Below the pieces are notes generated by a model. That model searched no databases, was not told where the DNA came from, and was given only the letters and a program-made list of their open reading frames with translations. A stretch of 64,000 nt of DNA from a virus: positions 32,001-96,000 of the IMG/VR virus record IMGVR_UViG_3300017605_001304; one strand, 5' to 3'. The translations under genes were made by a program, and so were the position numbers. Within the stretch, counting starts at the first letter, position 1. Each line of letters opens with the position of its first letter. Positions 45,867 to 62,377 of the stretch are shown piece after piece.

Positions 45867-46025
45867 TCACTTCTTCTGGAAGGCGGCATCCTGCTTCTTC
45901 TTGACCTCGACGAGCTGGTCGTAGAACCAGTCGCGCTCACCGACACTCATCTGCTGGATGTCGCCCCACGTGAAACGGCCGAAGTGAACGAGGAACAATT
46001 CCTTATGCAGGATTTCCAGGTGCAC
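45867..46025 (-). CDS. Tail assembly chaperone, second part (T4 gp51-like); probably reached by frameshift
   Basis: Manual translation VHLEILHKELFLVHFGRFTWGDIQQMSVGERDWFYDQLVEVKKKQ; overlaps the upstream chaperone in the +1 frame; weak SD. Confidence 0.65.
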   Translation of the reverse strand: MHLEILHKELFLVHFGRFTWGDIQQMSVGERDWFYDQLVEVKKKQDAAFQKK

Positions 46026-46818
46026 CTGTTCCGGCGCTGCTGATCCGAGGGCGAAAGAACTCGGCCGTGAACGGCATCCCGACCTCCTCTTCGCTCCGGC
46101 AGCGCGAGTTCGGGCAGGTCATCGTGAGGTCGAGGACGAAGCCGAACGCCATGTCGTCCAGCGCCTGCAGGAACGCGAAGACGTCCGGGCCTTCCAGGTG
46201 CTGGACGAGGTCGACGACCGTCGCGGCCCCGAGCGGGATCGACTGGCCGTCGACCTCGGTCACGTGGCGCGAAAGTCGGTAGTAGTACGCGATGTCGCCT
46301 TCCGCGGCGGGCATAGTGCCGGCGTGCTTCGTGGCCCAATCGGCCACCGCTTGCTCGTCTTTTCCACGGAAATGGCGGAGCCCGAGAGACTTGCCGCTCA
46401 AAGGCAGCTTGATGCGGTATGGTTCAAGGAACTGCTGCGTCAGCTCCTTGACGTGGAGATCTTGAAGGAGGTCGATCTCGACACGGGGATTGATTGAACC
46501 ACACGCCGGGCAGCGATATTTGAAGCCGTACTTCGTGCTTGCGAGGGACCGGACCTGGAACAGGCAGAACAGTCGGTCTGCCAGGAGCAGGTCGTCGGAT
46601 GCAAGCCCACGGCTGTCGACGCAGTTGTCGATGATGATGTCGATCTTGGAGCGAGCTCCCGAGCCCGAACCAGCGAAGATCTTCTGCTCGCGACTCGTGA
46701 TCGCACCGACGCGGACCTGCCCGTCTGGCAGATTGGGGTAGAGCAACCCCCGAGACGGGAGCGGGACCGTGCGGATGAGAGTCCGGCCTGCGAGCTTGTC
46801 AGTAGCGGGAGCGGTCAT
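46003..46818 (-). CDS. Tail/baseplate assembly chaperone (T4 gp26-like)
   Basis: VPLPSRGLLY, DLLLADR, CPACG, LPLSGK, CPNSRC...PFTAEFFRP. Confidence 0.8.
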   Translation of the reverse strand: MTAPATDKLAGRTLIRTVPLPSRGLLYPNLPDGQVRVGAITSREQKIFAGSGSGARSKIDIIIDNCVDSRGLASDDLLLADRLFCLFQVRSLASTKYGFKYRCPACGSINPRVEIDLLQDLHVKELTQQFLEPYRIKLPLSGKSLGLRHFRGKDEQAVADWATKHAGTMPAAEGDIAYYYRLSRHVTEVDGQSIPLGAATVVDLVQHLEGPDVFAFLQALDDMAFGFVLDLTMTCPNSRCRSEEEVGMPFTAEFFRPRISSAGTGAPGNPA

Positions 46819-46975
46819 GGTGGGATCCTTTCGATCCTGTGCTGCTGCCCCGCCATGAACTGCGACGGGGAAGATGGCGAACAAAAGGCAGGACCCCAGC
46901 GGCGAGAAGGAGGCGCCGCCAGGGTCCCACCCGGTGGAGGACACCCCCGCGCGGAGGAACGCGGGGGATCGTTAC

Positions 46976-47560: not shown

Positions 47561-48115
47561 TTACGGAGTAGGAATCGGGATGCTCACCGAGAACGCCGGC
47601 GTCACTCGCGGAATGATCTTGTCGATGCTCAGGTTCACCTGAATCTTGTTGATCTCGTTCGCGTTCACATCGAGGTCGGCGTACTTGATGGAATCAACGA
47701 ACACGCCGACCAGATCGATGAAGCGTTCGGCGGTACCGTCCGGCCCCGCCATGACCAGCGTGCCGAGCGTCTTGTAGGCGCTGGCGAAGCTGACCTGATC
47801 GGAGATCGGCAGGTAGACGCGCTGCGACATCGTCGAGAGCGCCTTCATCGTGCCGGCGTCGACGAAGTCCTTGCAGACCAGCGTGCCGGTGCTGTAGCTG
47901 GTCTTGCCGGCCACGTAGCGCTTGATGTTGCCGTAGTTGAGCTCGATGCGGTTGTGCGACTCCTCCGGCAGCGAGAAGCTCTCGACCGCCAGCGAGATCA
48001 GCTCCGCGTCGCGCGGCGACGGCAGGTAGAGCTCCAGGTTGAAGTTGTACTTGCGCTGCGGCTCGAACAGGCCGCGCGCCTGACCAAGGAAGTCACCAAG
48101 GGTCGGGATAGCCAT
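47561..48115 (-). CDS. Tail tube protein (gp19-like)
   Basis: FEPQRKYNF, SFSLP, YVAGK, YKTLGTL, immediately after the sheath. Confidence 0.85.
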   Translation of the reverse strand: MAIPTLGDFLGQARGLFEPQRKYNFNLELYLPSPRDAELISLAVESFSLPEESHNRIELNYGNIKRYVAGKTSYSTGTLVCKDFVDAGTMKALSTMSQRVYLPISDQVSFASAYKTLGTLVMAGPDGTAERFIDLVGVFVDSIKYADLDVNANEINKIQVNLSIDKIIPRVTPAFSVSIPIPTP

Positions 48116-48132: not shown

Positions 48133-49773
48133 TTACGCCGTCGCCGACAGGGCTTCCGAGAAGGAAGCGCCCGAGCTGAGCAGCGCGAAGTCGACACGGA
48201 TGATCTCGGCGGCCTTGGTCGGCTTGAGGAGGATCAGGCCACGCATCGTGTTCTGATCCTTGAGAGCAGCAGTGTTGGTCGACTCGTCGCAAATGACCTG
48301 GAAAGCATCGAGACCACGCCGGGCCTTCATCGTGTCGAAGATCGGCTGGACGATGCCCACGAAACGACGCCACGTGATCGGATCGTCCGGCTCGAACACC
48401 AGGAACCGGATCGACGCGGCCACGGTCTTCTTGGCCACGTTCATCAGCCGGCGCACGTTCACGCGATCCAGCGCCGACGACGTCCGCTGCATCGTCTTGT
48501 TGCCCCAGAGGGTGATGCCGTCGCGGGGGAACTTGACGATCGGGTTGATGACCTCGCCGGCCGCGTAGAGCAGCTCGCGCTCGCCCTGGTCCGGGCCGGT
48601 CGCGGGGCGGTACTCGATGGCCGTCGCCGTCTTGAGGACGCCGCGCTGCAGGCCCGCGAAGGCGAACCACGGCTCGGCGACTCGGTCCGTGAGGGCGATC
48701 TGGCTCGACACCCAGCCGCACGGCGGGGTCAGAACGTACTGGCCGTTGTAGTTGTCGTAGTACCCGACCCACGGCCAGAAGCAGGTTGCGTAGCTCGAAT
48801 TGACCGAGGTCGAGGAATCGCTGGTGCCGTTCACCAGATCGCGCACGGCGGTCGCCGAGCTCTGGTTGTACGGCGGGTCGTAGAGGTAGAGGCACTCGGC
48901 GCGAGCCTCACAGAGCGCGATGCCGGCGAGGTGCACCGTCTTGCCGCTGAGCGAGTTGGCCGCGACGGTGGCGCCCGGGCAGGCGATCATGTTGACGTCG
49001 ACGGTGTCCGCATCCGCGAAGAGCTGGAGGCCCGTCTTCGCTGCACCGCTCTGGGTGCCGATGAAGTCGCTGGCCTGGAGGCTCGTCTCGCCGTTCGTGC
49101 CGCCCGTGGCGTTATACGTCGTGAACGTCGGCTGGTTGGTCGAGTGACCGCCCGGCGCCGTCATCTTGACGTACTGCGAGTTGCCGTTGATCCGCGTCGT
49201 GTAGAAGTTGGGATCACTGTCCGCGCCGAACGTGAGGTTGTCGTAGTCCTCGACGTCGACGTTGTTGAACGTGATCGTCAGGCGGAAGCGCGTGCTCGCG
49301 AACTGCGCATCCCGCGGAGTGCTGATCGTGATCAGGAGGCCCGACGTCGCCGTCGTGCTGGCCGCGTTTGCCCAGACGCCCGGGCTCGACGCGTCGGCGA
49401 TCGCGACGTTGTTGTTATTGCTGTCCTTGATCAGGATACGAGCCGTCTGAGCCGGCCCGGCTGCCGCTTCGATGCGTGCCACCCAGAGCTGATTGCCGTT
49501 GCGCAGGTACTGGATCGCAGCATGCGCAAGGAAGCTGCCCGGGTAGTAGTACGTATCGCTCGTGCCTTCACCAGGGAAGTTGGCGAAGGTCGAACCGGCG
49601 ACCGGAGGCCCGAACGTATCGATGAACTGAGCTTCGGACGTGATATAGGTCAGCTTGTTCACCGGGCCGCGGCTGCACCAGCCGACGAGCCCGAGGATCG
49701 AGGAGCTGACCCGAGCGGCGTACTGACTGAGATCGAGCTCATTCAGGTACACGCCCGGAGAAACGAACGCCAT
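48133..49773 (-). CDS. Tail sheath protein (gp18-like)
   Basis: MAFVSPGVYLNELDLS, RGPVNK, WFAFAGLQRG, INPIV, WGNKT, LDRVNVRRL, FLVFEP, KPTKAAEII. Confidence 0.95.
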   Translation of the reverse strand: MAFVSPGVYLNELDLSQYAARVSSSILGLVGWCSRGPVNKLTYITSEAQFIDTFGPPVAGSTFANFPGEGTSDTYYYPGSFLAHAAIQYLRNGNQLWVARIEAAAGPAQTARILIKDSNNNNVAIADASSPGVWANAASTTATSGLLITISTPRDAQFASTRFRLTITFNNVDVEDYDNLTFGADSDPNFYTTRINGNSQYVKMTAPGGHSTNQPTFTTYNATGGTNGETSLQASDFIGTQSGAAKTGLQLFADADTVDVNMIACPGATVAANSLSGKTVHLAGIALCEARAECLYLYDPPYNQSSATAVRDLVNGTSDSSTSVNSSYATCFWPWVGYYDNYNGQYVLTPPCGWVSSQIALTDRVAEPWFAFAGLQRGVLKTATAIEYRPATGPDQGERELLYAAGEVINPIVKFPRDGITLWGNKTMQRTSSALDRVNVRRLMNVAKKTVAASIRFLVFEPDDPITWRRFVGIVQPIFDTMKARRGLDAFQVICDESTNTAALKDQNTMRGLILLKPTKAAEIIRVDFALLSSGASFSEALSATA

Positions 49774-49911
49774 GAAAGTCCTCCTGACAGTGATCAATCA
49801 CCCGCGAAGCGGGGGAGACGGTCACGTCGCTTGACCTTGGAAGGGGCGACGGAGGAAAGACGGGAAGACCGGACGGGAGCAGCGTAGGCAGGGGTTCCTG
49901 CAGCGGCTGCT

Positions 49912-50253
49912 TTAGGAGGGGTCTTGAACCTTGACGTACTTCGCTTGCATCAGGCGCACGCGCGCCTGCAGCAGCGGCAAAGTGAAGGAGTCGCCCGGAG
50001 CTTGCGGGAACGTCACGTCCTGGAACGTGACGAGGTTGTTGCCGAGCGTGGTCACCTTGATCGGGCGATGCTCCGTGGTGTCGGCGTAGATCTCACCGGC
50101 GCGGAACATGATCGACGGATGCGTCTGCACGGCGATCGGTGCATTGCTCTGTCCGGGCGGGGCAAAGAGCACGATGTACGCGGTGCAGCCGAGCGCGAGC
50201 GTGACTTCAGGAGCTCCGCCCAGGTCCTGCTGAAAGAGAAGTGGCAGTGACAT
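49912..50253 (-). CDS. Hypothetical virion protein
   Basis: Between the tail terminator and the sheath. Confidence 0.6.
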   Translation of the reverse strand: MSLPLLFQQDLGGAPEVTLALGCTAYIVLFAPPGQSNAPIAVQTHPSIMFRAGEIYADTTEHRPIKVTTLGNNLVTFQDVTFPQAPGDSFTLPLLQARVRLMQAKYVKVQDPS

Positions 50254-50256
50254 GGG

Positions 50257-50988
50257 TTAAGGCACCTTGATGACAAGGTCGGCAGGCGGAACCAGCGGAT
50301 CCTCGGGAGGATCTTCCGTCTCGTAGAACTTGACCTCGGTCAGCGTCTGGAGGACCGTCGGCGTCGGCTTCGCCGCGCTCAGGACCCAGCCGTGCAGCAC
50401 CATGGTGGCGCTCAGGCGCAGGACCCGGTCCTCTTCGTCCGGTTCGAGCTGCGAGTTGTCGGTGATCTCGCGCAGGTCGAAGGTGACGATCTTCTCGCCC
50501 CATGGCAGCCACACCGGCGAGAAGTCGACCATGAGCCGCCCGAGCGGCGTCGACTCCGTCTGCACGAAGAGCCCGAAGGCGTTCATCGTGTCGCGGTTCT
50601 TCGCCCAGAAGTCGATCTGGTAGGTCATGTCCCACGGCAACGGGTAGGGCGCGTTGTAGGAGACCTTCTGGTCGGCCGAGTAGACGCGGCCGCGGTACGT
50701 GCGGGACTGCGGCAGGAAGCGCTCCTGGTCGAGCGCGTGGCCAACGCGTGCGATGCTCGCCACGGGGTACGGCATCAGGCGGACCTTCTCGGACCGGTCG
50801 CCGTACTTCTTCTTCAGCAGGTCCTTCAGGGTCGCGAAGGCGCGGTCCGGCGTCGCGAACACGCAGTTGAAGGTCGGAGTGCCGAGCGTCTCGCCTGCCC
50901 GTAGGACCCAGGCCCGGACCGCCTGATCGTAGAGACGGAACTGGTCCGTCGCCGACGGCATCGTCGGGTTGCCAGGGACGGTGGACAT
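50257..50988 (-). CDS. Tail terminator / sheath stabiliser (gp15-like)
   Basis: FATPDRAF, PYPVASI, PLPWDMTYQIDFW; position upstream of the sheath. Confidence 0.7.
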   Translation of the reverse strand: MSTVPGNPTMPSATDQFRLYDQAVRAWVLRAGETLGTPTFNCVFATPDRAFATLKDLLKKKYGDRSEKVRLMPYPVASIARVGHALDQERFLPQSRTYRGRVYSADQKVSYNAPYPLPWDMTYQIDFWAKNRDTMNAFGLFVQTESTPLGRLMVDFSPVWLPWGEKIVTFDLREITDNSQLEPDEEDRVLRLSATMVLHGWVLSAAKPTPTVLQTLTEVKFYETEDPPEDPLVPPADLVIKVP

Positions 50989-50995
50989 GAGCACC

Positions 50996-51691
50996 TCACT
51001 CAAGTTCGACCCGGCGGAATTGCCAGCTCGCCACGCGCGACGGAACGATGACGCCACGAGGCGCAGACAGCCTCGACAGGTCGAGCTGGTCCGCCCACCA
51101 GACGCCGTCGAGTGAGGTGGCGTCCTCCACGTACACGGTCGTCAAGCAGTCAAATACGATGGTCGGATGAGCGGCTCCAAGCACGCGCTGCTGGAGTTTC
51201 TTCGTGGCGAGGACAGCACGCCGGGGGTCTTCAATCTTGGTGACCCGGCTAAACTTCTCGTCGGCATGTGCATCTGCGCGGGCCTCGTCTTCTGAGGCAT
51301 AGTCCGCACACAGCTCATCGTCCCATTCATCGTCATACCAACAGATTCGCCAGACCGAGCCGCGGACGATGTAGCCATGTTCAAGCCCCCACCCGACAAT
51401 CTCTTCACGCAGCCCGGGCACGATGTTGTGAAAATTGAGAAAGCGATTCCCCGCCCGCGTACACTCCCACACGGGGACAGCGCCCAAGGTCGCGATGTCG
51501 ATCCATTCCCGTGGATGCTGTGAAACCGAGAGTCCCGCGCCCTCCAGGCTTCCAGCCCGCTTGTCTTTCGCGTCGAGCGTTCCCGCGTGCCAGAGCTTCC
51601 GGAATGACTTCGTCGGGAGGTTGCGCTGCACTTCCAGGAATAGGCCACTAGCGATCGTGCGAGCTGACGGCCGCATGGACGCCTCACTCAA
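50996..51691 (-). CDS. Possible divergent ADP-ribosyltransferase-fold protein with N-terminal tag
   Basis: RTIASGLFLE tag, then LWHAGT...EGAGLSVS...DGVWW...GVIVP. Confidence 0.5.
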   Translation of the reverse strand: MSEASMRPSARTIASGLFLEVQRNLPTKSFRKLWHAGTLDAKDKRAGSLEGAGLSVSQHPREWIDIATLGAVPVWECTRAGNRFLNFHNIVPGLREEIVGWGLEHGYIVRGSVWRICWYDDEWDDELCADYASEDEARADAHADEKFSRVTKIEDPRRAVLATKKLQQRVLGAAHPTIVFDCLTTVYVEDATSLDGVWWADQLDLSRLSAPRGVIVPSRVASWQFRRVELE

Positions 51692-52847
51692 GGGTGGCGC
51701 GCATCTCCTGGAAGACCTCCACGAGCGCGGCGAGATTCGGATCGAGCTGCTCGGTCTTGTTGGCCGTGAGCGCGACGAGGGCCGGGCTCATGCGCAACAC
51801 CCACTCGCGGATCGCGTCCTCGGCCTTCACGTTCGGGCAGTGACACTTGGACGGGTCACTGCACTTGCCGCACTTGCGCTTCTTCGTGCGGTGGTTCGAA
51901 GCCGGGACCTGCCCGAGGGGAGGAGTGACGCCGGCCCCGACGTTGAGCGTGCCGGTCAGCTCGTTCAGGTAGTTGGTCGGCGACTGCCCGATGCCTTGCA
52001 TCAGGGCAGAGACGATGTCTTTCGAATTCATTGGCACAGACTCCCCGAAGATCTGCCGGCGGTACTGCGCCGCATTGTTTATCACCCAGTGTACAACGTG
52101 CTCGAATGAGCCCCGGTAGAGGCAGTCCCGGCCACCGGGAATCTTGGAGAGGACGCACCACACATCCCAGCCGTCGGATTGAAGCACCGCGATCGAGCTC
52201 GGAGGGATCTTGTTACCGAGGAAGATGTACTGGTTCTCGTTATCCCCGTAGTGATAAATCGGCACCGAGGCCGCCTGGAACAGTACGGCGTGCTTACCGT
52301 AGCTATCGTAAGCGCGCTCGGCCGCGCGTGCATCGAGCGCATTCACGGCGAAGTTGTAACCGCCATACCGCTTGGCCTCGTCCGATAGCCAGCTCGTGAG
52401 TCCTAGTCGCTGGTAGTCGTGGTACCCGCGGGTGAAGCCGTCCGCGCCGATTTCTTGCGGGGAGTCCGTGAAGTGGGCCAGCCACGTCTGACGGTGCGTG
52501 ATCGAGCCGCGGAGATCTGCGTGCGCGTAGGTGGGAAGATCTGCGTGATTCTCGACCGCGCTGTCTAGAAAGGCGTCCCACTCTTCTCGATGGTCGATGA
52601 ACCAGTCGTTGAGGCGTGCGACGACGGCCCAGTCTGCGTCAGAGTCCGGAACGTCGGAGGCCCACGTAGCCTTGATCTGCTTCGGCTTGATCCCAGCCGC
52701 GAGAGCGATCTCCTTGCTCTTTGGCCAGTGAGTGAACTCGTACCAATACTGAGCCACGTCCGGGGGCCGCAGGTCCATGTACGAGTGGAGCGCGCTCAGC
52801 TCGCTGCCGTAGACCTCGTCTTTCCGCTTGAGGTCCTTCGAGTTCAT
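51684..52847 (-). CDS. Multidomain protein with ART-like domain and Cys-rich C-terminal module
   Basis: WLAHFTD...GYNFA...YGKHAVLF...GDNENQYIF; MNSKD occurs at the start and again internally; CGKC..CHC. Confidence 0.55.
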   Translation of the reverse strand: MNSKDLKRKDEVYGSELSALHSYMDLRPPDVAQYWYEFTHWPKSKEIALAAGIKPKQIKATWASDVPDSDADWAVVARLNDWFIDHREEWDAFLDSAVENHADLPTYAHADLRGSITHRQTWLAHFTDSPQEIGADGFTRGYHDYQRLGLTSWLSDEAKRYGGYNFAVNALDARAAERAYDSYGKHAVLFQAASVPIYHYGDNENQYIFLGNKIPPSSIAVLQSDGWDVWCVLSKIPGGRDCLYRGSFEHVVHWVINNAAQYRRQIFGESVPMNSKDIVSALMQGIGQSPTNYLNELTGTLNVGAGVTPPLGQVPASNHRTKKRKCGKCSDPSKCHCPNVKAEDAIREWVLRMSPALVALTANKTEQLDPNLAALVEVFQEMRATLE

Positions 52848-54229
52848 GAGGCATGCTCTCCCGGATCCCCGTAGGGCAGGACCGACGCGAACCCGAACCC
52901 GAGCGGGCCGATCAAGAACATGGATCCGTCTTCCATGGCTTGCCACTTCATGCGGGGGATGATCTTGGCGAACTCTGGATCTTTGCGGGCCAAGCGCTCT
53001 AGACGGCGGAGTGCTTCCGCCTGAGCCTCTTCTCGCGTTCCACGCACCGCGACCTCGGCGAAGCCGGCCGGCTGCGGCACCTTCCCAAGCGGGGACGGAA
53101 GAAGACCATTCGGGAACTTCACACGCCAATACTCCCGGCCCGGCAGCTCGGTCGGCATGTTGGGCTTGAAGATCGGCTCTCCGACGGTCTTGTCGTCGAC
53201 CCAGCCGTCGGGGGTCCAACCGTCTTTGAAGAGCCGCGTCGCCATGGAGCGCGTGGATTCCTTCTTGTGCTTCTTCACGTCGTCTCCTCGCACGCGCGGT
53301 GTGTCGAAGGGGAAGCCCGGCGCGTCGACGTCCCTTGGGGTGAGCTGCGTGACCTTGGCGATCTTCTCCGTGTTGAAGACGACCACCCAGTCCTCGTTGC
53401 TCTGCCTCACGTACGCCACGTCGACGCCGTGGTCGACCAGGAACTTCGCGAGCGCCGGACCGGCCTGTCCAGACGCCTGATCCGAGTTCACGAAGACGTT
53501 GACGAGGTACTCGGCAGGGAACGGGTTCCCGGAGCGGGCCGCCAGCCGGCGCAGCGAGTCTGCGAGCTCCTGGCGCTGCCGAAGACGTGGGACGTCGCGC
53601 AGCCACGCGAGCGTCTCTTCGAGATCGAGGCGAGCGTCCTGCAGCCAGCGCAGGTCCGGAGCCAGGACGACCCGCTGCACGGCACCGCCGCCCTTCGCGT
53701 AGCCCTTGGCGGTCGTCCAGCTCGTGGTGAGGTAGATGCCGGGTCCGTGCTCCGCGGCGCCGCGTCGTGCACCACGGATCTCGGGCGGGCCGAACCACCG
53801 ATGCGAGCCGTGATACAGAACGAGCGGGTCCGTCATGGACGACTCTCGCTGACGCTGGATAGGTATTACCTCGTAATAGCGAGGAGAAGAAATGTCACTC
53901 TGCTCGCGGACATACGAGATAGCGATCTCGTCGACACGTGGGAACGTAAGGAGCACATAGTCTAGTACGCGCGTACGAAGTCGCGGGGCAGACATGAAGC
54001 GATTCGAACAAGCCTGCCGAATCCAGCCGCGCTTGAACATGCTCAGCCAAAGCTGGTCTTCCGCCGCCTCAGTGTTGTTCGTGAACTCCACCTGAGATGG
54101 AATCTGCACGCCGGTGGCGCGCAGTACGCCTTCGTGTGCATGGACCCAGTCATTGTGCGAAGTGTCCGGGTCGGTAATTGGGAACACGCAGCCATCCGGG
54201 GCGATCCAGGCGCGTCCAGCGTAGGCCAC
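52844..54229 (-). CDS. GWxxPDG domain + H-Y-type ADP-ribosyltransferase domain + tagged C-terminal domain
   Basis: AWIAPDG...H..W...GWIRQ; LYHGS...GPGIYLTT...AKGYA...EDWVVVFN; ESTRSMATRLFKD; GTG start with SD AAGGAG. Confidence 0.7.
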   Translation of the reverse strand: MAYAGRAWIAPDGCVFPITDPDTSHNDWVHAHEGVLRATGVQIPSQVEFTNNTEAAEDQLWLSMFKRGWIRQACSNRFMSAPRLRTRVLDYVLLTFPRVDEIAISYVREQSDISSPRYYEVIPIQRQRESSMTDPLVLYHGSHRWFGPPEIRGARRGAAEHGPGIYLTTSWTTAKGYAKGGGAVQRVVLAPDLRWLQDARLDLEETLAWLRDVPRLRQRQELADSLRRLAARSGNPFPAEYLVNVFVNSDQASGQAGPALAKFLVDHGVDVAYVRQSNEDWVVVFNTEKIAKVTQLTPRDVDAPGFPFDTPRVRGDDVKKHKKESTRSMATRLFKDGWTPDGWVDDKTVGEPIFKPNMPTELPGREYWRVKFPNGLLPSPLGKVPQPAGFAEVAVRGTREEAQAEALRRLERLARKDPEFAKIIPRMKWQAMEDGSMFLIGPLGFGFASVLPYGDPGEHAS

Positions 54230-54239
54230 AGGCAGCTCC

Positions 54240-54776
54240 TTAACCGAGCGTGCAGTCGATCGGCTGGAAGTCGGCGTAGATCTCGCGCGCCTTGTCCAGC
54301 GACCACCCATAATTACTCAGGTAGTTCACGAACGCGCCGAGGTCCAGGAACTTGAAGCCCGTCACGGAGTGGCAGAGGTTCTGGTAGAGGACGTTCAGTC
54401 GCACGACCTGCAGGTAGGCGCGCGCCACGACGCGGCCGAACTCGTTGGGCCGCAGCGGGCTCACGATGATGCGCGGGCCGTAGACCTTGGTCCAGTCGAT
54501 CTCTTCGGGCGGCAGGAGCGCCTGCGGGCCCCAGAGGGCGAGGGCCAAGCACTGGCTCGCGCGGTTGAACTTCTCGACGGCGTCCTTGTCGGGCTTGCCC
54601 TGCGCCTTCGGGCGGGTGTCCGGGAGGTCGACGCCGACGAGCTGGATGCGGGCCGCGCGGTACGTCCACAGGCCCTGGTCGATCATCCCGAAGAACGTCT
54701 TGCCGTCGACGACGAACTGCCGGCTCTTCGGGAAGAGCTGGACCTGACAGGCATAGTTGAACAGGATCCGATTCAA
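54240..54776 (-). CDS. Thermonuclease (SNase)-like protein, catalytically degenerate
   Basis: VVDGKTF..IDQG..RIQLVGVDLPD...EFGRVVA versus canonical DGDT / IDxPE / YGR. Confidence 0.6.
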   Translation of the reverse strand: MNRILFNYACQVQLFPKSRQFVVDGKTFFGMIDQGLWTYRAARIQLVGVDLPDTRPKAQGKPDKDAVEKFNRASQCLALALWGPQALLPPEEIDWTKVYGPRIIVSPLRPNEFGRVVARAYLQVVRLNVLYQNLCHSVTGFKFLDLGAFVNYLSNYGWSLDKAREIYADFQPIDCTLG

Positions 54777-54801
54777 GAAGACCTCCCGTGACGTCGACGC
54801 C

Positions 54802-55311
54802 TCACTGACGAAGCGCTGCGGTCACGTGCTTGTTGACGATTTCGGTCGCGTACTTCTCGTACTGCCGAGCGCGGCGCGCGATGAGCGTCGCTGCGACTCG
54901 CCAGTGAGGATGCGGGGGAAGCCGGACGCTCTGCCCGCCGATGACCGCCGCCCCGCCGTACTCCAGGAGCTTGCTCACGTAGGGCAGGGACCAACCGAGC
55001 GCGCTCATGCGGTCCTCGGTGGCGATCGTGACGGTGGTGATCTCCTTCCCGCGGTGGACATCGGGCAGGATGCCGCGCACGTAGTCGAAGATCGCCTCGC
55101 GCCACGCCTTGTCCGAGAGGTAGTCGGTCTCTTCCAGGCTGCGGTCCGCGGCGCGGGCGGCCTTGGACTGGATGGTCACGAGGCTGTCGCGTGTGACCTT
55201 GTCCGCGAGCTGCTGGAGCGACTCCTCACAGCCTTTCCGGAGACCTGCCTCGACCCTGCGCAGCCACTCCTCGGGCCGTAGCCCTTCCATATTGACGGTG
55301 GCCTTGATCAA
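54802..55311 (-). CDS. Virion morphogenesis / tail-completion protein (HK97 gp10-like)
   Basis: LLEYGG...LPPHPHWR motif; start at TTG 55311 or ATG 55290. Confidence 0.55.
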   Translation of the reverse strand: MIKATVNMEGLRPEEWLRRVEAGLRKGCEESLQQLADKVTRDSLVTIQSKAARAADRSLEETDYLSDKAWREAIFDYVRGILPDVHRGKEITTVTIATEDRMSALGWSLPYVSKLLEYGGAAVIGGQSVRLPPHPHWRVAATLIARRARQYEKYATEIVNKHVTAALRQ

Positions 55312-55343
55312 GGTATCGTCTCCACACCTTGGAGGAGGTGAAC

Positions 55344-55766
55344 ATGGCCACGCTGGACGAGCTGCAGAAGGGGTCCGAAGAGTGCTCGGCACGGATGCGA
55401 GCGGTGCTACAGGACGAGCTCAAGCGCACGGGCTTTCCACTGCGCCTATGCACCTACTACGTGGTCGGCATGACCGGCGCGTGGATCTTCCGGCTGCTCT
55501 TCAAGTTCGACCTGTTTGAGAACTTCAAGAGCTTGGCGCTCATCCTGCTGTGTCCGCCTCTGCTGACCGCGACGCAGGCTTTCCTGTTGAGCTTCATGCT
55601 CAAGCGGGCATACCAGCGGGCGCAGGATGCGCTCGGCATCGCGGACAAGGCGGAGAAGGCGCTGTTCGAGGCGACGCGAGGACTGCTCGCTCAGCGTGAG
55701 CAGCTCAAGTTCCTGGTCGAGAGGCTGCGCGATCGCGACGAAGGCGAGGAGTGGAAGGACGCTTAA
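55344..55766 (+). CDS. Membrane protein (two TM segments + coiled coil), antisense insert
   Basis: SD GGAGGTG; two hydrophobic segments. Confidence 0.65.
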   Translation: MATLDELQKGSEECSARMRAVLQDELKRTGFPLRLCTYYVVGMTGAWIFRLLFKFDLFENFKSLALILLCPPLLTATQAFLLSFMLKRAYQRAQDALGIADKAEKALFEATRGLLAQREQLKFLVERLRDRDEGEEWKDA

Positions 55767-56257
55767 CGGCCGTGGCGGTACCGGTCGCAGGCGCACACGA
55801 TGTGGAACGGGAAGTTGGACGATCCCCAGTATCCGTCCTTGCTGCGCGTCTGCGTCTTGATCTCATAGAGGTCCGAATCGAAGCGCACGATCGAGCCGAC
55901 CAGGAACGTCGTGCTCGGCTGCAGGATCTTCTGGTCGAGCAGCAGCACGGTCGAGAACGTCACGAGCAGCGTCCGCTCCTCATCCATGCCGTACTTCTGC
56001 AGGCGGTACTTGCTCGGGCTGTGGTCGATGTGGGCGTGGACCATGATCGGGTGGTCCCAATCCGGGTCGGACGCCTCGTTGTAGAGCGAGTCGACGTTCG
56101 TGTTGCCCCGGTTGAGCAGGATCAACGCGATCTGCGGGTGGTGGCGGATGAACGCCTCGCGCTGGAAGTTCGCCTGGATCTTGTAGTCCGACGTCTCCAG
56201 CAGCTTGAGCAGGAGCTCATTCGCGTCCTTGCCGTCGATCGGCAGCAGGTCGGACAT
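55763..56257 (-). CDS. Neck / head-completion protein (gp14-like)
   Basis: VDSLYNEA, LQKYGMD, VGSIVRFDSDLYEI...YWG. Confidence 0.7.
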   Translation of the reverse strand: MSDLLPIDGKDANELLLKLLETSDYKIQANFQREAFIRHHPQIALILLNRGNTNVDSLYNEASDPDWDHPIMVHAHIDHSPSKYRLQKYGMDEERTLLVTFSTVLLLDQKILQPSTTFLVGSIVRFDSDLYEIKTQTRSKDGYWGSSNFPFHIVCACDRYRHGR

Positions 56258-56966
56258 GGAGGTCCTCCAAGAACAGACGAGCGGCGAGGAAGCGGGTGGC
56301 CTCGTTCACGTGCAATTCGTACGGCCGCTCGGGACGCCCCTCATCGCTGTACGGGTCGACGTAGAACGACGACTTGCCGGGGTAGTTCGTGATGAAGTAG
56401 TCCTTCGCGCGGGACAGATCCTTGCGGCGAAGCTCGTACATGTTCCAGTCCGCCTTGCGGATCCAGCCGTGCATGCACATGTGGCGCATGATGACGTCGC
56501 CCGGGGTCAGTGGCGGCGTCTGATAGGCAGCTAAGAGTTCAGGGTGAACTCGGGCCCACGAGTCGTGAGACTGCCGGTCAGAGTCGAGCGGGTAGAACGT
56601 GTCGTCGGGAGCAATCCAACCTGCCCGAACATTGCGCGACTCGTGCAGGCGCACGGTCACCGGTTCCACTCGATGTGGAACGCGGCCGTGAAGGTCGAGA
56701 TTTGCTGCCTCGACTCCTGGATACTTCATGCGGATGTAATCGAGCAAGAGAGGCTCATACTTCACGTTCAACTCGTAGTCCTTCTTGCCAGCCTGCCGGA
56801 TCCAGCCCTTCGCGTACAACTGCGTAATGACCGCATCCGTGAAGTCAGGATCGTACGGGTCGTCCATGCCGAGCAGCTCGGCCGCGAACTGATCGTGCAT
56901 GTCGAAACGCGGCTCCAGAGGATGGAAGTTCATGTCCGGGTCGAGCCAGCCAATGTGGTCGGACAT
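56217..56966 (-). CDS. Protein with two GWxxPD domains and C-terminal tag
   Basis: GWLDPD...H...GWIRQ...YE and GWIAPD...H...GWIRK...YE; EATRFLAARLFLE. Confidence 0.75.
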   Translation of the reverse strand: MSDHIGWLDPDMNFHPLEPRFDMHDQFAAELLGMDDPYDPDFTDAVITQLYAKGWIRQAGKKDYELNVKYEPLLLDYIRMKYPGVEAANLDLHGRVPHRVEPVTVRLHESRNVRAGWIAPDDTFYPLDSDRQSHDSWARVHPELLAAYQTPPLTPGDVIMRHMCMHGWIRKADWNMYELRRKDLSRAKDYFITNYPGKSSFYVDPYSDEGRPERPYELHVNEATRFLAARLFLEDLHVRPAADRRQGRE

Positions 56967-57787
56967 CACTGGCCCTCCAGGAACAGACGCTTCGCGATAG
57001 CCTTGGTGGACTCTAGCTGCACGACCACTGACTTGATGCGGCCGCGCCAATCTCTGAGATCAATCTCGATCGCGCGTACTTGAGGATACTTACGCCGGAC
57101 ATAGTCCACGACGGACTGTTCAAACAAAGCGTAGCACTCGTACTGGTCGCGACTCACTTGACGGATCCAGCCGTCGTCAAACATCGCTTGAATCTTCCTG
57201 TCGACCCAGTCATCGTCGTCCGAGTCGTGCGCCTCACTGTCGGCAACCCACCCGGCGTGTCCTTGCGGAGCGGCGTGAAACTGTCCGTTCGGGTCGATCC
57301 ACCCTTGCACCAGCGATGGCGCGGCTTCAAGCCAGCTCGACGGGAGCTTGAGCTGCTGGACGGCGCCAGATCGAATCGACGACGTCAACACGATCCACTC
57401 CTGCTCTTCGAGCGAGTCCTCGCTGGAGAGGTAGCGGCTGATCGGCAGCCCGATCGCTGTGCCTTTACGAAGGCGATACAGCTTGCCGGACTTCCAGTGC
57501 TTTTGCGCGAACGTCACCGCCGTAGTGACGTTGCTGCTCCAGGACTGGAACACGCGAGTCGACTCAGACGCGGGATCTACCTCTGCACCACGGTAGAGCG
57601 CAGGAACTGGTTGGCCGTTCTCTTTCAGGTCCTGCAGCAGTGCCCGGGCCTCGGCCCGCAGCTTCCGGCCAGACGCACTCGAAGGTTCTGGGGCCCCGGC
57701 GAGCTCGTCCTTGGCGTGCAGCTCGACGGTACCCATGTCGCTGCTGACCCACCGCCAGACGGCCCGTACCGCTTGAGGGTCGATCAT
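56966..57787 (-). CDS. R-S-E-class ADP-ribosyltransferase domain fused to GWxxPDG domain and C-terminal tag
   Basis: LYRG, FQSWSS, A..FA, EEQEWIV; then GWIDPNG...GWIRQ; ESTKAIAKRLFLEG. Confidence 0.8.
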   Translation of the reverse strand: MIDPQAVRAVWRWVSSDMGTVELHAKDELAGAPEPSSASGRKLRAEARALLQDLKENGQPVPALYRGAEVDPASESTRVFQSWSSNVTTAVTFAQKHWKSGKLYRLRKGTAIGLPISRYLSSEDSLEEQEWIVLTSSIRSGAVQQLKLPSSWLEAAPSLVQGWIDPNGQFHAAPQGHAGWVADSEAHDSDDDDWVDRKIQAMFDDGWIRQVSRDQYECYALFEQSVVDYVRRKYPQVRAIEIDLRDWRGRIKSVVVQLESTKAIAKRLFLEGQ

Positions 57788-58146
57788 CCCAACCCCTCCA
57801 AGAACAGACGCTTGGCGATGGCCCGTGTAGACTCGTCCATGTTGATGACGAGTGTTTTCGGAGGGCCAAGAAAGTCAACTACATCGATATTAATTCGATG
57901 CACATTGGGGTGTACTCGACGTACGTAATCAATGACCCACTGCTCATACGCCGCGGTACACTCATAATCGTACAGTCCCGCTTGGCGCACCCACCCAGCC
58001 TTTAGCATCCGAACCGTCTCAGCGTTAACCCAAACCAGAATCTGATCGTTGTCCGGGGCTCCTGGCCTGTTGTCTATCACCCACTCGTCGTGGCCATTCA
58101 GTACGCGGTGGAACTCGCCGTCAGGATCAATCCAGCCCTGTGCCAC
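57784..58146 (-). CDS. Single GWxxPDG domain protein with C-terminal tag
   Basis: GWIDPDGEFH...H..W...GWVRQ...YEC...DYVRR; ESTRAIAKRLFLEG. Confidence 0.75.
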   Translation of the reverse strand: MAQGWIDPDGEFHRVLNGHDEWVIDNRPGAPDNDQILVWVNAETVRMLKAGWVRQAGLYDYECTAAYEQWVIDYVRRVHPNVHRINIDVVDFLGPPKTLVINMDESTRAIAKRLFLEGLG

Positions 58147-58149
58147 GGC

Positions 58150-59178
58150 TTACCCCCACACAGGCGGAACGGCCGGCGCGAGCGAGCGCAGGTCATCTTC
58201 CAGCCGCTGCCGGTCTTGCCGGCTCTCGTCTAGAAGCTGCGCTGCGTCGAGCGTCAGCGTTCCACCGGGGCTCGGGACCGTCCCGCTCCACTTGCCGCGG
58301 GTCCGGCCGAGGATCTCCTTCGCGACGGCAAGTGCGTATTGTCGGAACCACGCGTGGTGCGAGACCGGGATCTGGTCGATCGCGACGTCGGCGTAGTAGC
58401 GGTACGAGACGTCGTAGAGGCTCGGGTCCTGAGAACCCGAGGGCCCGCCGAGCGAGATGTAGAGCGTCCCGTTCTCAACTCGCCAAGTCCACTCGGGCTC
58501 GACCGACGCCTGCCTACGCACTGTTTCCCAGTGCGACTGCGAGAGCACGAACTCGTCGAACTGGATCTGCGGCCAGATCGGGAACTCGCGGCCGAAGAAC
58601 GGGAACGACGTCAGGTTCAACTGCTGCTTGCGAACGAACTGCACGTCCGCAACGCCGCGTGAGCCGACGCCCGGCAGCGGGTAGGCGAAGATGCCGGCGC
58701 TCAGCACCACGGTGTCCGACAGCTCGCGGGCGCACCAGCGGTTGTACACCGTGAGCGCTTCGTTCATGCACGTCGCGAGCTGCCCGCTCGTGAGCTCGAC
58801 GGCCACGGACGGGAAGCCCAGCATGTTGAAGACGTACTGCCGGATCGAGTCGGAGTTGACGCCGCTCGCGATCGGGTATTCAGCCGTCAGCACGGTCGGG
58901 AACGGATCAACCTGGATGCCGAGCTGGTTCGCGTACCACTTCGCCGTGATCCGGCCCTGCACATAATTGCTGGCGTCGATGTACGTGTAGTAGAACGTCC
59001 CCTGCGCGTCCGAGCCTTGCACGATCGAGACCGAGGAGTCGGTCCCGAGTGCCCGGGTCTCAGTCACCGTCACGGCGCCCGCCTGGAAGATCTGGACCGA
59101 GAGGTCCTGATCGACCACGTCGCCGAGCCCGGTGTCGTCATTGACGAAGCGGATGTCCAACAGAACTGGAAGCGCCAT
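58150..59178 (-). CDS. Neck protein (T4 gp13-like)
   Basis: YVFNMLGFPSVAVELT..QL, WFRQYALAVAKEILGRTRGKW..VPSPGGTLTLDA. Confidence 0.85.
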   Translation of the reverse strand: MALPVLLDIRFVNDDTGLGDVVDQDLSVQIFQAGAVTVTETRALGTDSSVSIVQGSDAQGTFYYTYIDASNYVQGRITAKWYANQLGIQVDPFPTVLTAEYPIASGVNSDSIRQYVFNMLGFPSVAVELTSGQLATCMNEALTVYNRWCARELSDTVVLSAGIFAYPLPGVGSRGVADVQFVRKQQLNLTSFPFFGREFPIWPQIQFDEFVLSQSHWETVRRQASVEPEWTWRVENGTLYISLGGPSGSQDPSLYDVSYRYYADVAIDQIPVSHHAWFRQYALAVAKEILGRTRGKWSGTVPSPGGTLTLDAAQLLDESRQDRQRLEDDLRSLAPAVPPVWG

Positions 59179-59181
59179 CGC

Positions 59182-60693
59182 TTATCTCTCCCGTCCAGCC
59201 AGACGAAGGCGTGTGTCGCCATGGACGCGGCCGCGGATCGCGACGTCGAGCCCCAGCGACGCCGCTCGATCCGTCACGAAGACGCCCAGGTCGCAGCCGA
59301 GCTGCAGGCCGCCGCGCTGGATCACGGCCAGATCGAGGCCGAGCGTGAGGACGGCGTCGAGCACCTTGACCGCGGTCGCCGTCGCGAGGTCTGTCGTGCT
59401 CTGCGCTCGCACGACGCTGGTGAGGCCCAGGGACACGTGGTCGGTCTCGGCGATCCCCGCGCTGGTCGCGAGGTCCGCCGTGAGCTCCGAGGCCACGAAG
59501 AGGTCCAGGACGACCTGCTTGAAGCTCGAAGTTCCGATCCAGGTCGAGAGGCTGAGGTTGATCGTGCGGTTCCCGGTCCCGACGACCAGGGTGTCCGAGG
59601 ACAGGTTGATCGCGTGCCCGACCGCCACTCCCAGATCGGTCAGGAGCGTCGTCAGGAGCGTCTCCGCGACGCCCGTCGACGTCGACAGGTTCAGCACCGG
59701 TGCGCCCTTGACCACGGCCGTGGTGGCCACGGAGAGCGTCTTCGGTGCGCGAATGGCTGCCATCGTCGGCAGCGATAGCTGGAGGCCCTGAGCGACGGCC
59801 GTCGACAGGTTGAGCGAGAGGGTCGGCGCGAGCTGGACGACGGTGTCGAGGCCCAGGAACGTCGTGAGCGAGCTCTGAGAGACGAGCGTCGTGAGCCCGA
59901 GGCTCAGGACCGGCTGCACGTACGTCGTCGACGTGAGCGCGAGCGTACGCCCCATGCTCGCGACGGCCGAGGTGAGGCCGAGCGACGCCGACTGCGGGAA
60001 GACGACCAGGGTGTCCGCGCCGAGCTGCAGGGCGATGGGCGCCTGCACCGCGGTCTTCGTCGCCATCATCACGAAGCGCGACAGCGCCACGGCGGTCGAG
60101 AGGGACAGAGTCGACGACGTCGAGAACGCCACCGCGACGTTCGTCCACAGGAACGTGAGCACGTCGGGGTCGCTGATCGCGGCGTCGGCGCCGAGCAGCG
60201 ACTGCCCGCTAGTCATCCCGAGCGAGATGGCGGTGTCGAGCGAGAGGTTCTTCGTCCGGTTCGTCTGCTGCACGGCCACGCCGGTCGGCACCGCGGAGAA
60301 CCGCGACGCCTGCACCGCCGAGGTCAGCAGCAAGAGCTGGTTCACGTTCGCCACGGAGATGGCCGTGCTAGTCGCGAGCGTCTTGAAGTACGTGCCGACG
60401 ATCGTGTCGACCAGCAAGGTCTGCGCGACGTCTGCGAACTGGACCGCGGTCGTCTCCCCCAGCGACAAGGTCAAGGGGGTTTGCACCGCCGCCTGTGACG
60501 TCAGATTCAGGGTCAGATTCGAGAACTGAACCGCGTTGGTGAGGCCGAGGTCCAGCGTCGTGTTGGGCATCACCACAACGGTGTCCTCGCTGAGCAAGAG
60601 GGACGTCTGAGCCAGCACGCCGAGATCAAGACCCAGCGGCAGGGAGACAACCGTGCCTCCGAGAAGATTGTTCTGCAGGATCGGCAGAAGCAC
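59182..60693 (-). CDS. Leu/Thr/Ser/Ala/Val-rich repeat protein (probable virion fibre)
   Basis: Many degenerate 13-14 aa units of the form LxLxTxTAV; few charged or aromatic residues. Confidence 0.65.
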   Translation of the reverse strand: MLLPILQNNLLGGTVVSLPLGLDLGVLAQTSLLLSEDTVVVMPNTTLDLGLTNAVQFSNLTLNLTSQAAVQTPLTLSLGETTAVQFADVAQTLLVDTIVGTYFKTLATSTAISVANVNQLLLLTSAVQASRFSAVPTGVAVQQTNRTKNLSLDTAISLGMTSGQSLLGADAAISDPDVLTFLWTNVAVAFSTSSTLSLSTAVALSRFVMMATKTAVQAPIALQLGADTLVVFPQSASLGLTSAVASMGRTLALTSTTYVQPVLSLGLTTLVSQSSLTTFLGLDTVVQLAPTLSLNLSTAVAQGLQLSLPTMAAIRAPKTLSVATTAVVKGAPVLNLSTSTGVAETLLTTLLTDLGVAVGHAINLSSDTLVVGTGNRTINLSLSTWIGTSSFKQVVLDLFVASELTADLATSAGIAETDHVSLGLTSVVRAQSTTDLATATAVKVLDAVLTLGLDLAVIQRGGLQLGCDLGVFVTDRAASLGLDVAIRGRVHGDTRLRLAGRER

Positions 60694-60739
60694 GGTTGTC
60701 CCCTAGGGGCTATGTCATGGGCATGAACGCCACAGAGGA

Positions 60740-62365
60740 TTAGAAGTAGGTCGTAACGACGACCATGCCGTGACCGCCCGCGCCTCCACCCTGCGACCCA
60801 GACGCGGTGCCGCCACCGCCGCCACCGCCGCCAGGGAATCCGCCGTTACCAGCGTGCGTCGCAGAGTCTCCCGCGCACGCACCGGAGCCGCCATGCGGGA
60901 ACCGCGTCGAGTCATTGCCGTTCGCACCGGCCGCGGCCGCGGGAGCTGAAGCACCGCCGCCCATGCCGGGACCGGAGTTGACGCCAGTGGTCGAGCGTCC
61001 GCCCGCACCACCACCGCCGCCGCGCAGCGACCATCCGTTGTTCGCGGAGGTCGTCCCAGTATCAACATCCGCGCCGGATTCTCCGCCGCCACCGCCCCAT
61101 TCTGCAGGTGAGCCACCGACCGGGGACAGCGTGCCGGCGCCGCCACGACCCCCGCCGCCACCGCTGGCCGGGATGTTGTTCGCCGCCGGGACCGTGTAGA
61201 GATCCGAACGGCTCGTGTTGGCGACGAGCGCCGTGAGTCCGCGACCGGCTCCACATCCGCCGTTCCCACCATCCGCAGAGACTGCGCCGGTCGCGGCCGT
61301 TCCGGCGACGCGGCGCGCCGACGTCAGCGGGCCTTGCCCACCCTTGTCAAACTCCGAGAGCACGCCCGCATTGCCGTTCGTGCCGTCCGTATTCGCGGTC
61401 GCGGCGCCGCCCTTGCCGGCGTGAACAGTCACCGACGTGCCGAGGTCCGTCGGGTCGAACCACGCCTCGTCGTACCCGCCACCACCGCCACCACCGCCGC
61501 CCGCCGCTGTCACCGCATTGCGACCGGCCGATCCGCTGCCACCGCCATCGCAGATCTGCACGAAGCACTTCCGCGCGCCCGGCCCCGGGCGCTGCCAAGT
61601 GTCATCGAGATCTGCAGCGGAACCGATGAAGAACTGGGTTTCGCTAGGCCGGGGCGCCGGGAAGTCGCGGTTCCCGCTGATGGTCGGGAGGAAGTGGATA
61701 CGCGTCGCCACCTCGACCGTGGAGCTGGCCCACGTCATCGTCGTGGCGGCGGTCCCTGCCGCCACGGCCCGCGTGCCGCTGACCATGACGAGGCCGCCGC
61801 CCGTGCCGTCCGTCGTCGATCCGTCGAACTGCTCGGTGATGCTCGTGAGGTTGGAGTTCGTCGCGGCCGACGCCTGCCCACCGGTGGCGTCGATGGCATG
61901 CGCCCAGAGGTCGACGACGAGCGTGTTGTCGATCCACGTCTGCGTCACGGCCGATGAGGCCGACGTCGACGCAGTGAACTTCCACGACTGCCCGCCCAGG
62001 TGGAACGGATCCCCGATGTTCGGGCAGCCATGGACCGAGAACATGAACCCGTAGGTGTGGTCACCTGCGTCGGTAAGCGTCGGCGCAGTCTCGCTGCCGC
62101 TGTCCCGCTTCCAGAAGATCGAGAGCTTCGTGCTGGCGGCAGTCGCCGCCGCACCGATCCCGTTCTGCGGACCGATCTGCTTGTACCCGGCCGGCGCCGC
62201 GTAGTTGGCGTCGTTCGAGCACTGGATCACGAGTACGAGAATGTCGTCGGCATCGTGCACGCTAGGCAGCGTCGCCGTCGGCACCCCGGTCGAATGGAAC
62301 TCCGCGCCGACGCTCGCGATCGTAGGGAGAGTCGGCGTGCGGCTAAGGAGAGGATACAGCGGCAT
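60740..62365 (-). CDS. Glycine-rich virion fibre/decoration protein
   Basis: Beta-sandwich N-terminal half, then a GGGGSG/GGGGGG glycine-rich domain ending GHGMVVVTTYF. Confidence 0.75.
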   Translation of the reverse strand: MPLYPLLSRTPTLPTIASVGAEFHSTGVPTATLPSVHDADDILVLVIQCSNDANYAAPAGYKQIGPQNGIGAAATAASTKLSIFWKRDSGSETAPTLTDAGDHTYGFMFSVHGCPNIGDPFHLGGQSWKFTASTSASSAVTQTWIDNTLVVDLWAHAIDATGGQASAATNSNLTSITEQFDGSTTDGTGGGLVMVSGTRAVAAGTAATTMTWASSTVEVATRIHFLPTISGNRDFPAPRPSETQFFIGSAADLDDTWQRPGPGARKCFVQICDGGGSGSAGRNAVTAAGGGGGGGGGYDEAWFDPTDLGTSVTVHAGKGGAATANTDGTNGNAGVLSEFDKGGQGPLTSARRVAGTAATGAVSADGGNGGCGAGRGLTALVANTSRSDLYTVPAANNIPASGGGGGRGGAGTLSPVGGSPAEWGGGGGESGADVDTGTTSANNGWSLRGGGGGAGGRSTTGVNSGPGMGGGASAPAAAAGANGNDSTRFPHGGSGACAGDSATHAGNGGFPGGGGGGGGTASGSQGGGAGGHGMVVVTTYF

Positions 62366-62377
62366 CTGCGCCTCCTG

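Follow-up and report, generated by a model that had tools for sequence, protein, structure and literature searches.

Among phages, the myoviruses are enriched in ADP-ribosyltransferases (ARTs), and morphogenesis contexts account for 44% of all phage ARTs (PMC9503650). Alt of phage T4, an R-S-E ART of the Alt/VIP2 family, is packaged in the head and injected, and genes of the Alt family are associated with baseplate genes (PMC5512222). The polyvalent proteins of phages and conjugative elements carry 2 to 15 effector domains on one polypeptide, which is predicted to be delivered with the DNA (Iyer et al. 2017, PMC5512222), and the ART-PolyVal domain has an active site composed of a His on strand 1, a Tyr on strand 2 and an Asp on strand 5 (PMC5512222). 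The general concept of ARTs made with the virion, and of polyvalent effectors, is already published (PMC5512222, PMC9503650). Here we describe six small genes (p120, p273, p249, p461, p387 and p231, together called the cargo) that are embedded among the neck genes of a phage's late structural operon. The genes lie within positions 32,001 to 96,000 of the IMG/VR record IMGVR_UViG_3300017605_001304; this stretch of 64,000 nucleotides is called the window, and positions are given in it unless another contig is named. What is new is the split architecture, the pairing of an R-S-E with an H-Y-D ART, a shared domain that we call GW, and four families that have no models.

The phage genome is a single contig of 149,155 bp with about 64% GC. 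Its late structural operon is on the minus strand, where the adaptor, sheath, tube and hub genes are all located (Table 1), in agreement with the neck/tail operon setting proposed in the first-pass annotation of this DNA. Real genes were told from the spurious open reading frames (ORFs) of GC-rich DNA by their codon-position GC. The cargo forms two blocks of three genes, block A (56217-58146) and block B (50996-54229), and the blocks are separated by native genes with a high GC content at the third codon position (GC3) and by a gene on the plus strand. From the adaptor to the sheath, the order is p120, p273, p249, p164, the plus-strand gene, the 162-residue gene, p178, p461, p387, p231, the 243-residue gene and the 113-residue gene. 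The six ORFs picked out in the first-pass annotation are real, co-oriented and tightly coupled, but the single contiguous cassette described there is in fact two, and the plus-strand gene between them had not been seen. Cargo genes overlap by 1-4 nt or are separated by gaps of 3-10 nt, with the Shine-Dalgarno sequence lying within the end of the upstream gene, and no minus-strand promoter-like site was found in a 15.5-kb scan. The GC3 of the cargo is 0.61-0.82, compared to 0.87-0.95 for the interspersed and flanking structural genes and a genome median of 0.85; the AT-richer stretches remarked on earlier are therefore genuine at the third codon position. The stretch from the gp13 gene to the sheath is 8.35 kb long, whereas in Bacillus phage SP-15, which provides the best match to the sheath (35% identity), it measures about 3.4 kb and contains six small genes. 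Taken together, the lower GC3, the tight junctions and the greater length fit two insertions of accessory DNA into the neck module.

Table 1. Positions in the window of the cargo genes, their domains and the surrounding genes, listed in the order of transcription of the minus strand
Feature	Position	Strand	Remarks
Head-tail adaptor, T4 gp13 / Ad2 type	58150-59178	-	phrog_211, E 2.2e-13, residues 109-332; GC3 0.88; native, upstream bound of cargo
p120	57784-58146	-	Block A; GC3 0.61; one free-standing GW domain ending in ES..IA.RLFLE helix
Junction repeat CTGTTCYTGGAGG	57794-57807, 56973-56986, 56263-56276	-	Encodes LFLE and the ribosome-binding site of the next gene
p273	56966-57787	-	Block A; R-S-E ART and GW domain
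p273 residues 1-156, R-S-E ART domain	57320-57787	-	R66, S82-W83-S84, E128-Q-E130
p273 residues 158-273, GW domain and RLFLE helix	56969-57316	-	47-50% identity to p120; HMM 158 bits
p249	56217-56966	-	Block A; two tandem GW domains, RLFLE helix closing the second
p164	55763-56257	-	Native neck-module gene; GC3 0.95; overlaps end of p249 by 41 nt
Plus-strand gene, 140 residues	55344-55766	+	Between the cargo blocks
Native neck-module gene, 162 residues (from M35 of listed ORF)	54802-55290	-	GC3 0.87
p178	54240-54776	-	Native; GC3 0.94
p461	52844-54229	-	Block B; GW domain, ART-PolyVal and C-terminal region
p461 residues 1-125, GW domain	53855-54229	-	HMM 133 bits; BLASTP matches to p249, p120
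p461 residues 129-317, ART-PolyVal H-Y-D domain	53279-53845	-	H140, Y166, D270 and E279-D280-WVVVF strand
p461 residues 318-461	52844-53278	-	ESTRSMATRLF helix, then C-terminal region with GWTPDGW motif
p387	51684-52847	-	Block B
p231, 226 residues from ATG 51676	50996-51676	-	Block B
243-residue gene at tail terminator / gp15 position	50257-50988	-	GC3 0.90; native, downstream bound of cargo
113-residue gene	49912-50253	-	GC3 0.81
Tail sheath	48133-49797	-	
Tail tube	47561-48115	-	
Baseplate hub	46003-46944	-	

A word-based search with p273 retrieved only p273 itself, and about 85 relatives with 30-45% identity were obtained by an exhaustive HMMER search; close to half of these are located within proteins of 600-5,177 residues. 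No Pfam match was found on the ART domain in any of the ten homologs scanned, and the family falls outside current curated models. Structure prediction by AlphaFold2 from the single sequence was unusable (predicted local distance difference test score, pLDDT, 36.7), while with an alignment of 44 sequences the N-terminal domain reached a pLDDT of 92.5 and a predicted template modelling score (pTM) of 0.86. A Foldseek search with this model returned ARTs at the top of the list, although the E-values are modest, and in the viral library BFVD the model matches phage ARTs, including Alt and minor-capsid fusions. The combination of AlphaFold and Foldseek, which had been suggested as a check, thus gives an ART fold for this domain. 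An independent model from the ESM Atlas matches ADPrib_exo_Tox clusters at TM values of 0.6-0.72, and its structural neighbours include portal-MuF-ART clusters.

The LYRG, SWS and EQE motifs of p273, on which the first-pass annotation had relied, are present and fall on family-invariant columns. In the model, Y65-R66-G67, S82-W83-S84 and E128-Q129-E130-W131 are on the predicted strands 64-68, 80-84 and 130-134. Among the 44 aligned family members R66 is conserved in 43, S or T at position 84 in all 44, and E128 in 43, while position 130 is E in 36 and Q in 8. It is concluded with little doubt, from the predicted fold and the catalytic triad, that residues 1-156 of p273 form an ART of the R-S-E clade.

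The second ART belongs to a different clade. The p461 core has 11 homologs with 45-61% identity, whose fusion partners are NUDIX, GNAT or another ART-PolyVal domain. All 12 members of the family match PF18760 at E <= 0.01, and an hhalign comparison between the 12-homolog p461 profile and nine bona fide PF18760 domains gave a probability of 97.3% and an E-value of 2.2e-11 over 60 columns. The 12-sequence alignment shows no variation at H140, Y166 and D270, which fits the H-Y-D site of ART-PolyVal (PMC5512222). The H and Y align with PF18760 motifs, and the placing of D270 (or E279/D280) on strand 5 is from a comparison of motifs by eye. The motifs YHG, GIYLT and EDWVVVF that had been singled out in p461 are likewise present on family-invariant columns. 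On this sequence evidence, residues 129-317 of p461 are highly probable to be an ART of ART-PolyVal type. In the remaining C-terminal region, the GW hidden Markov model (HMM) found no full GW copy despite the GWTPDGW motif. A scan of the genome collection with the p461 family gave one free-standing ORF of 213 residues, in Pseudomonas nitroreducens.

The repeated GWxxPDG domain that had been noticed in the cargo is confirmed by BLASTP (E 1e-28 to 1e-4) and by HMM (133-177 bits). It is found five times in four genes: p249 has two copies, and p120, p273 and p461 have one each, located C-terminally in p273 and N-terminally in p461. The copy in p120 scores 177 bits, and the two in p249, which are matched by BLASTP to p120 and p273, score 140 and 158 bits. 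The domain is about 110 residues long, with an ES..IA.RLFLE helix at its C-terminal end. In 24 copies it follows the pattern [GA]-W-[IL]-x-P-x-G-x-x-H ... H-x-x-W ... G-W-[IV]-R-[KQ] ... Y ... H-P, within which P8, H19 and W52 are invariant. The helix closes the last GW copy in p120, p273, p249 and P0061, and one like it comes after the ART in p461 and at the start of p231. The helix is present also in the metagenomic homologs P0061 and P0079, and so belongs to the domain family and is not a tag peculiar to this phage. The effectors linked to GW are two ARTs of different clades here and a GNAT elsewhere, since in P0061 two GW copies are followed by a GNAT acetyltransferase.

Two leads on the fold of GW were set aside and are not treated as evidence: a truncated, low-confidence model from the ESM Atlas with ferredoxin-like or ACT neighbours, and a PDB profile search in which the winged-helix part of a DtxR-type regulator was the single, weak match (E 0.34). 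GW is strikingly expanded in a 24-kb metagenomic phage-like contig, with at least 24 copies in six adjacent genes built almost only of GW (L004:3304-16845), and these genes adjoin an exonuclease and a tRNA nucleotidyltransferase. A stop-to-stop frame of 96 residues at G000:C1:125663-125950 (minus strand) contains DIDLARLFIEG, a sequence similar to the RLFLE helix found in cargo proteins.

The first-pass annotation had counted four ARTs in the cargo. The two described above stand, while the ART-likeness of p387 (51684-52847) and of p231 (then read as 50996-51691) was not confirmed in Pfam, NCBIfam, PDB profile or profile-profile searches. For both proteins there is no ART signal in Pfam or NCBIfam, their family profiles have no PDB match, and hhalign probabilities are below 2% against the three ART profiles that were built. 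On these comparisons, the assignment of p387 and p231 as ARTs is unproven rather than disproved. The conserved core of p387 is formed by residues 112-270 (52038-52514) and defines a small family with homologs P0113-P0116; in P0114 and P0116 it is fused to a separate ART-PolyVal domain, and in contig L003 a p387-type module is located about 5 kb from a p461-type ART. In p231, an N-terminal RTIASGLFLE helix is followed by a conserved domain (51008-51610), which shares 44% identity with the C-terminal 200 residues of a 1,679-residue protein containing NUDIX, GNAT and ART-PolyVal (L007:5639-10678). The p231 domain has ten more metagenomic homologs, and also ends a 1,706-residue protein of contig L014 that has HD and PolyA_pol (poly(A)-polymerase-type) domains. 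These relationships establish the p387 core and the p231 domain as modules that recur in polyvalent-type proteins.

Elsewhere, the p273 ART, the p387 core and the p231 domain are found in proteins of about 600-3,100 residues with ART-PolyVal, NUDIX or GNAT. Of the p273-type ARTs, that of P0020 is fused to a portal and that of P0106 to a p461-type ART; in P0015 and P0109 (3,093 residues) the domain is beside ART-PolyVal. P0036 combines it with a GW domain, and the gene for P0036 lies between those of a portal fusion protein and the major capsid protein in an unrelated phage contig (L022). Given that every cargo module is fused elsewhere to ART-PolyVal or a portal, the simplest reading is that a polyvalent-type set has been split into small genes. 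This suggests that the cargo is a polyvalent effector repertoire, comprising an R-S-E ART, an H-Y-D ART, the p387 and p231 modules and the five GW copies, distributed over separate small genes.

The explanation that we favour, with the chances for and against it evenly balanced, is that two blocks of horizontally acquired accessory genes in the neck part of the late operon encode effectors that are made late, and most likely loaded into the virion and delivered. From the position in the operon, and from the occurrence of the modules in portal-fused or polyvalent proteins, we infer the following course of events. Because the cargo genes are translationally coupled to virion genes, their proteins would be made late. 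They would most likely be loaded into the virion, for which the GW domain is the best candidate as a common loading or assembly module, and would be released into the next host along with the DNA. The two ARTs would then use NAD+ to modify host macromolecules, either for takeover or for counter-defence, as T4 Alt does. Packaging in particular is argued by analogy, and is put at about one half. There are Glu-Ala or Glu-Ser sites at the domain borders of p273, p249, p461 and p387, which are candidate sites for the prohead protease.

A number of observations weigh against this explanation. The ART domain of p273 has no Pfam or NCBIfam match at E <= 0.1, including PF03496, PF01129 and PF26846, and the GW domain has no model in Pfam, PHROG or NCBIfam. 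On its own, p461 scores 21.5 bits against PF18760, which is under the Pfam cut-off of 31.2, and the match covers profile positions 6-63 of 140. The GC3 of the cargo is in the lower quartile of the genome, yet is not unique there. In this phage, the six cargo proteins all lack fusions to portal, MuF or capsid domains. In contigs L001 and L003, homologs of the p461 and p387 modules are located among non-structural genes (RecA-like, 2OG-Fe(II) oxygenase, helix-turn-helix), and therefore these modules are not always virion-linked. Finally, the border Glu-Ala/Ser sites do not have the L-x-E pattern that the major capsid protein shows at its N-terminus, and by our own rough estimate about three such dipeptides would be expected in a stretch of 270 residues. 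Because the sites lack one pattern and the dipeptides are common by chance, cleavage by the prohead protease remains a lead.

The genes for the major capsid protein (phrog_138) and the head maturation protease (phrog_207) are farther upstream, outside the window (G000:C1:99678-102836). The protease is 567 residues long with a long C-terminal extension, and RLAE/S at capsid residue 32 and PRLAE/S at protease residue 197 are candidate T4-like L-x-E cleavage sites.

The alternative that survives best is that the cargo is made late but is not packaged, and acts in the producing cell: ahead of lysis it could modify proteins of the host or phage, RNA or DNA, it could block abortive-infection systems that depend on NAD late in infection, or it could exclude superinfecting phages. 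This is rather unlikely in our judgement, but deserves to be taken seriously. T4 ModA and ModB provide a precedent, being ARTs that are not injected (PMC5512222). The position in the operon tells the probable timing of production and not the destination, this phage has no portal or MuF fusion, and the non-structural neighbourhoods in L001 and L003 are those of p461/p387-type modules. Insertions in the neck module, however, are more often virion-associated, and the same domain families are elsewhere fused to the portal or encoded between portal and capsid genes. ART-PolyVal is moreover the signature enzyme of proteins that are predicted to travel with the DNA (PMC5512222).

We consider it improbable that the two blocks are selfish toxin-immunity or addiction cassettes, in which the ARTs would be toxins, and p120 and p249 would be neutralizers that bind via the GW domain. 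The arrangement of the genes is of the kind expected, in that the ART-GW fusion has a free-standing GW protein immediately before it and a double-GW protein after it; R-S-E ARTs are common toxins, both of polymorphic toxin systems and of toxin-antitoxin systems (PDB matches 6drh, 8za7 and 8s2m), and the GC3 of the cargo is below that of the neighbouring genes. An immunity protein is however difficult to reconcile with GW arrays of 5-8 copies, which are found in three adjacent genes for proteins of about 900-1,100 residues with no toxin module detected. In addition, GW and the ART are joined in cis in p273, p461 and P0036, and scans with Pfam and NCBIfam found no known immunity, ARH or macro domain.

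A structural role, with the GW proteins as collar or whisker-like decorations of the neck and the enzyme domains as degenerate, non-catalytic passengers, is very improbable: the genes are indeed located between the positions of the adaptor and the tail terminator, a region that in T4-like phages codes for components of the neck, collar and whiskers, and tandem repeats of small domains are typical of fibrous or decorative proteins, but both ART domains retain every family-invariant catalytic position, and the lower GC3 and the shorter gp13-to-sheath stretch of SP-15 argue for accessory genes rather than core structure.

Returning to the explanation by late production and delivery, a more specific version of it is speculative, and we regard it as doubtful. 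In this version, GW and its ES..IA.RLFLE helix would be a new module for virion loading or co-assembly, which gathers separate effectors non-covalently and makes the cargo a split, exchangeable counterpart of the giant polyvalent proteins, with the gene junctions serving both as ribosome-binding sites and as recombination points at which cargo is swapped. The three block A junctions have in common CGTCTGTTCYTGGAGG, which codes for R-L-F-L-E and is followed after 6-8 nt by ATG, and the start of p164, though this is a native gene, sits behind the same RLFLE/Shine-Dalgarno junction. The two junctions in block B (51679-51689 and 50991-51001, minus strand) have in common CTTGAGTGAGG, followed after 5-6 nt by ATG. 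Both p249 and p164 open with ATGTCCGAC. The conserved junction sequences may be recombination points for gain or duplication of cassettes.

Some start sites had to be revised. The starts of p231 and of the gene downstream of it are better placed at ATG 51676 and at ATG 50988, the latter behind GAGG. For p461, AAGGAG is 6 nt upstream of the GTG at 54229. The GTG start of p120 at 58146 is backed by the conserved N-terminal half of its GW domain; in the public gene call, p120 appears to begin at M47 (74 residues), which halves the domain.

Of the two genes proposed to bound the cargo, the gp13-like adaptor is supported by phrog_211, while the gp15-like label of the 243-residue gene would follow from its position and from SP-15 gene 041, which it matches weakly (E 1e-6, with a small database). 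The 243-residue gene has no PHROG, family, PDB or phage tblastn match. In the same small database, the adaptor pairs weakly with SP-15 gene 036 (gp13 neck protein; E 7e-6), and the 162-residue gene with gene 040. This last gene is taken from M35 because GC3 is 0.87 from there on, versus 0.47 in the preceding 34 codons. No family match was found for p164 in Pfam, PHROG or NCBIfam. For p178 there are sub-threshold matches to the phrog_452 endonuclease (E 0.0022) and the NCBIfam EcnA nuclease (E 0.0077) and no PDB or phage match, and it possibly contains a staphylococcal-nuclease-like domain.

The plus-strand gene is embedded head-to-head and tail-to-tail among the minus-strand late genes. Its codon-position GC is 0.64/0.37/0.86 (55329-55766), versus 0.87/0.39/0.63 for the antisense ORF. 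It has the sole sigma70-like promoter match in the 15.5-kb scan, at 55292-55319, and a ribosome-binding site, GGAGGAGG, ahead of the ATG at 55344. The protein has two hydrophobic segments and a charged helical tail, and may be a holin-like, exclusion or immunity protein.

Relatives of the phage were searched for at several levels. A megablast comparison of 9.2 kb of the region with phages gave no match, nor did tblastn against phages with p461, p387, p231, the adaptor, p178 and p266, and scans of IMG/VR using the GW alignment, the adaptor and the sheath found no relative. The DNA and protein collections searched thus contain no close relative with which synteny could be compared, and the phage is from a previously unsampled lineage with a contractile tail. 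Upstream of the adaptor (59182-63946, minus strand) there are three large genes for proteins of 503, 541 and 522 residues, which have no PHROG family apart from a weak tail-fibre-assembly match of the 541-residue protein.

If the cargo is in the virion, an effector load of the T4 Alt or polyvalent type can also be organized as small, separate, swappable units, and the GW domain becomes a handle for finding such cargo in other phages. For a specialist this would be a moderate surprise, because the general concept is already in the literature. Annotation pipelines at present miss four families, namely the R-S-E ART (at least about 85 clusters at 50% identity), GW, the p387 core and the p231 domain, and the practical value of the work is in better annotation of phage genes for counter-defence and takeover.

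Compared to the bacterial mono-ADP-ribosylating toxins of the C3, Vis and C2-I type, the p273 domain has 8-19% identity and a root-mean-square deviation of 3.6-4.6 Å, and in contrast to these toxins it is found in a phage setting with no secretion or translocation component. With T4 Alt it shares the R-S-E triad, the ART fold and encoding together with late virion genes in a contractile-tailed phage, and Alt relatives are among its structural matches. It differs from Alt in having no sequence match to Alt, PF03496 or PF26846, in its ART domain being about 155 residues long, and in being fused to GW and encoded in the neck module; Alt is packaged, whereas the cargo is known here from its genes. 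The MuF and portal-fused effectors of the SPP1 gp7 / Mu F type (PMC5512222, PMC9503650) are resembled by P0020, with its portal-fused p273-type ART, and by P0036 beside a portal fusion protein in L022. The window contains no such fusion, and so a link to the virion, if any, must be non-covalent. The likeness to the polyvalent proteins is one of domain content: p461 carries ART-PolyVal with its H and Y positions and a candidate for the D, the cargo shares its strand with the virion genes and is bracketed by the adaptor and the sheath, and its predicted role is as effectors delivered with the DNA. The architecture is different, with one to three modules per protein in six genes encoding 120-461 residues, and the set includes an R-S-E ART and the shared GW domain.

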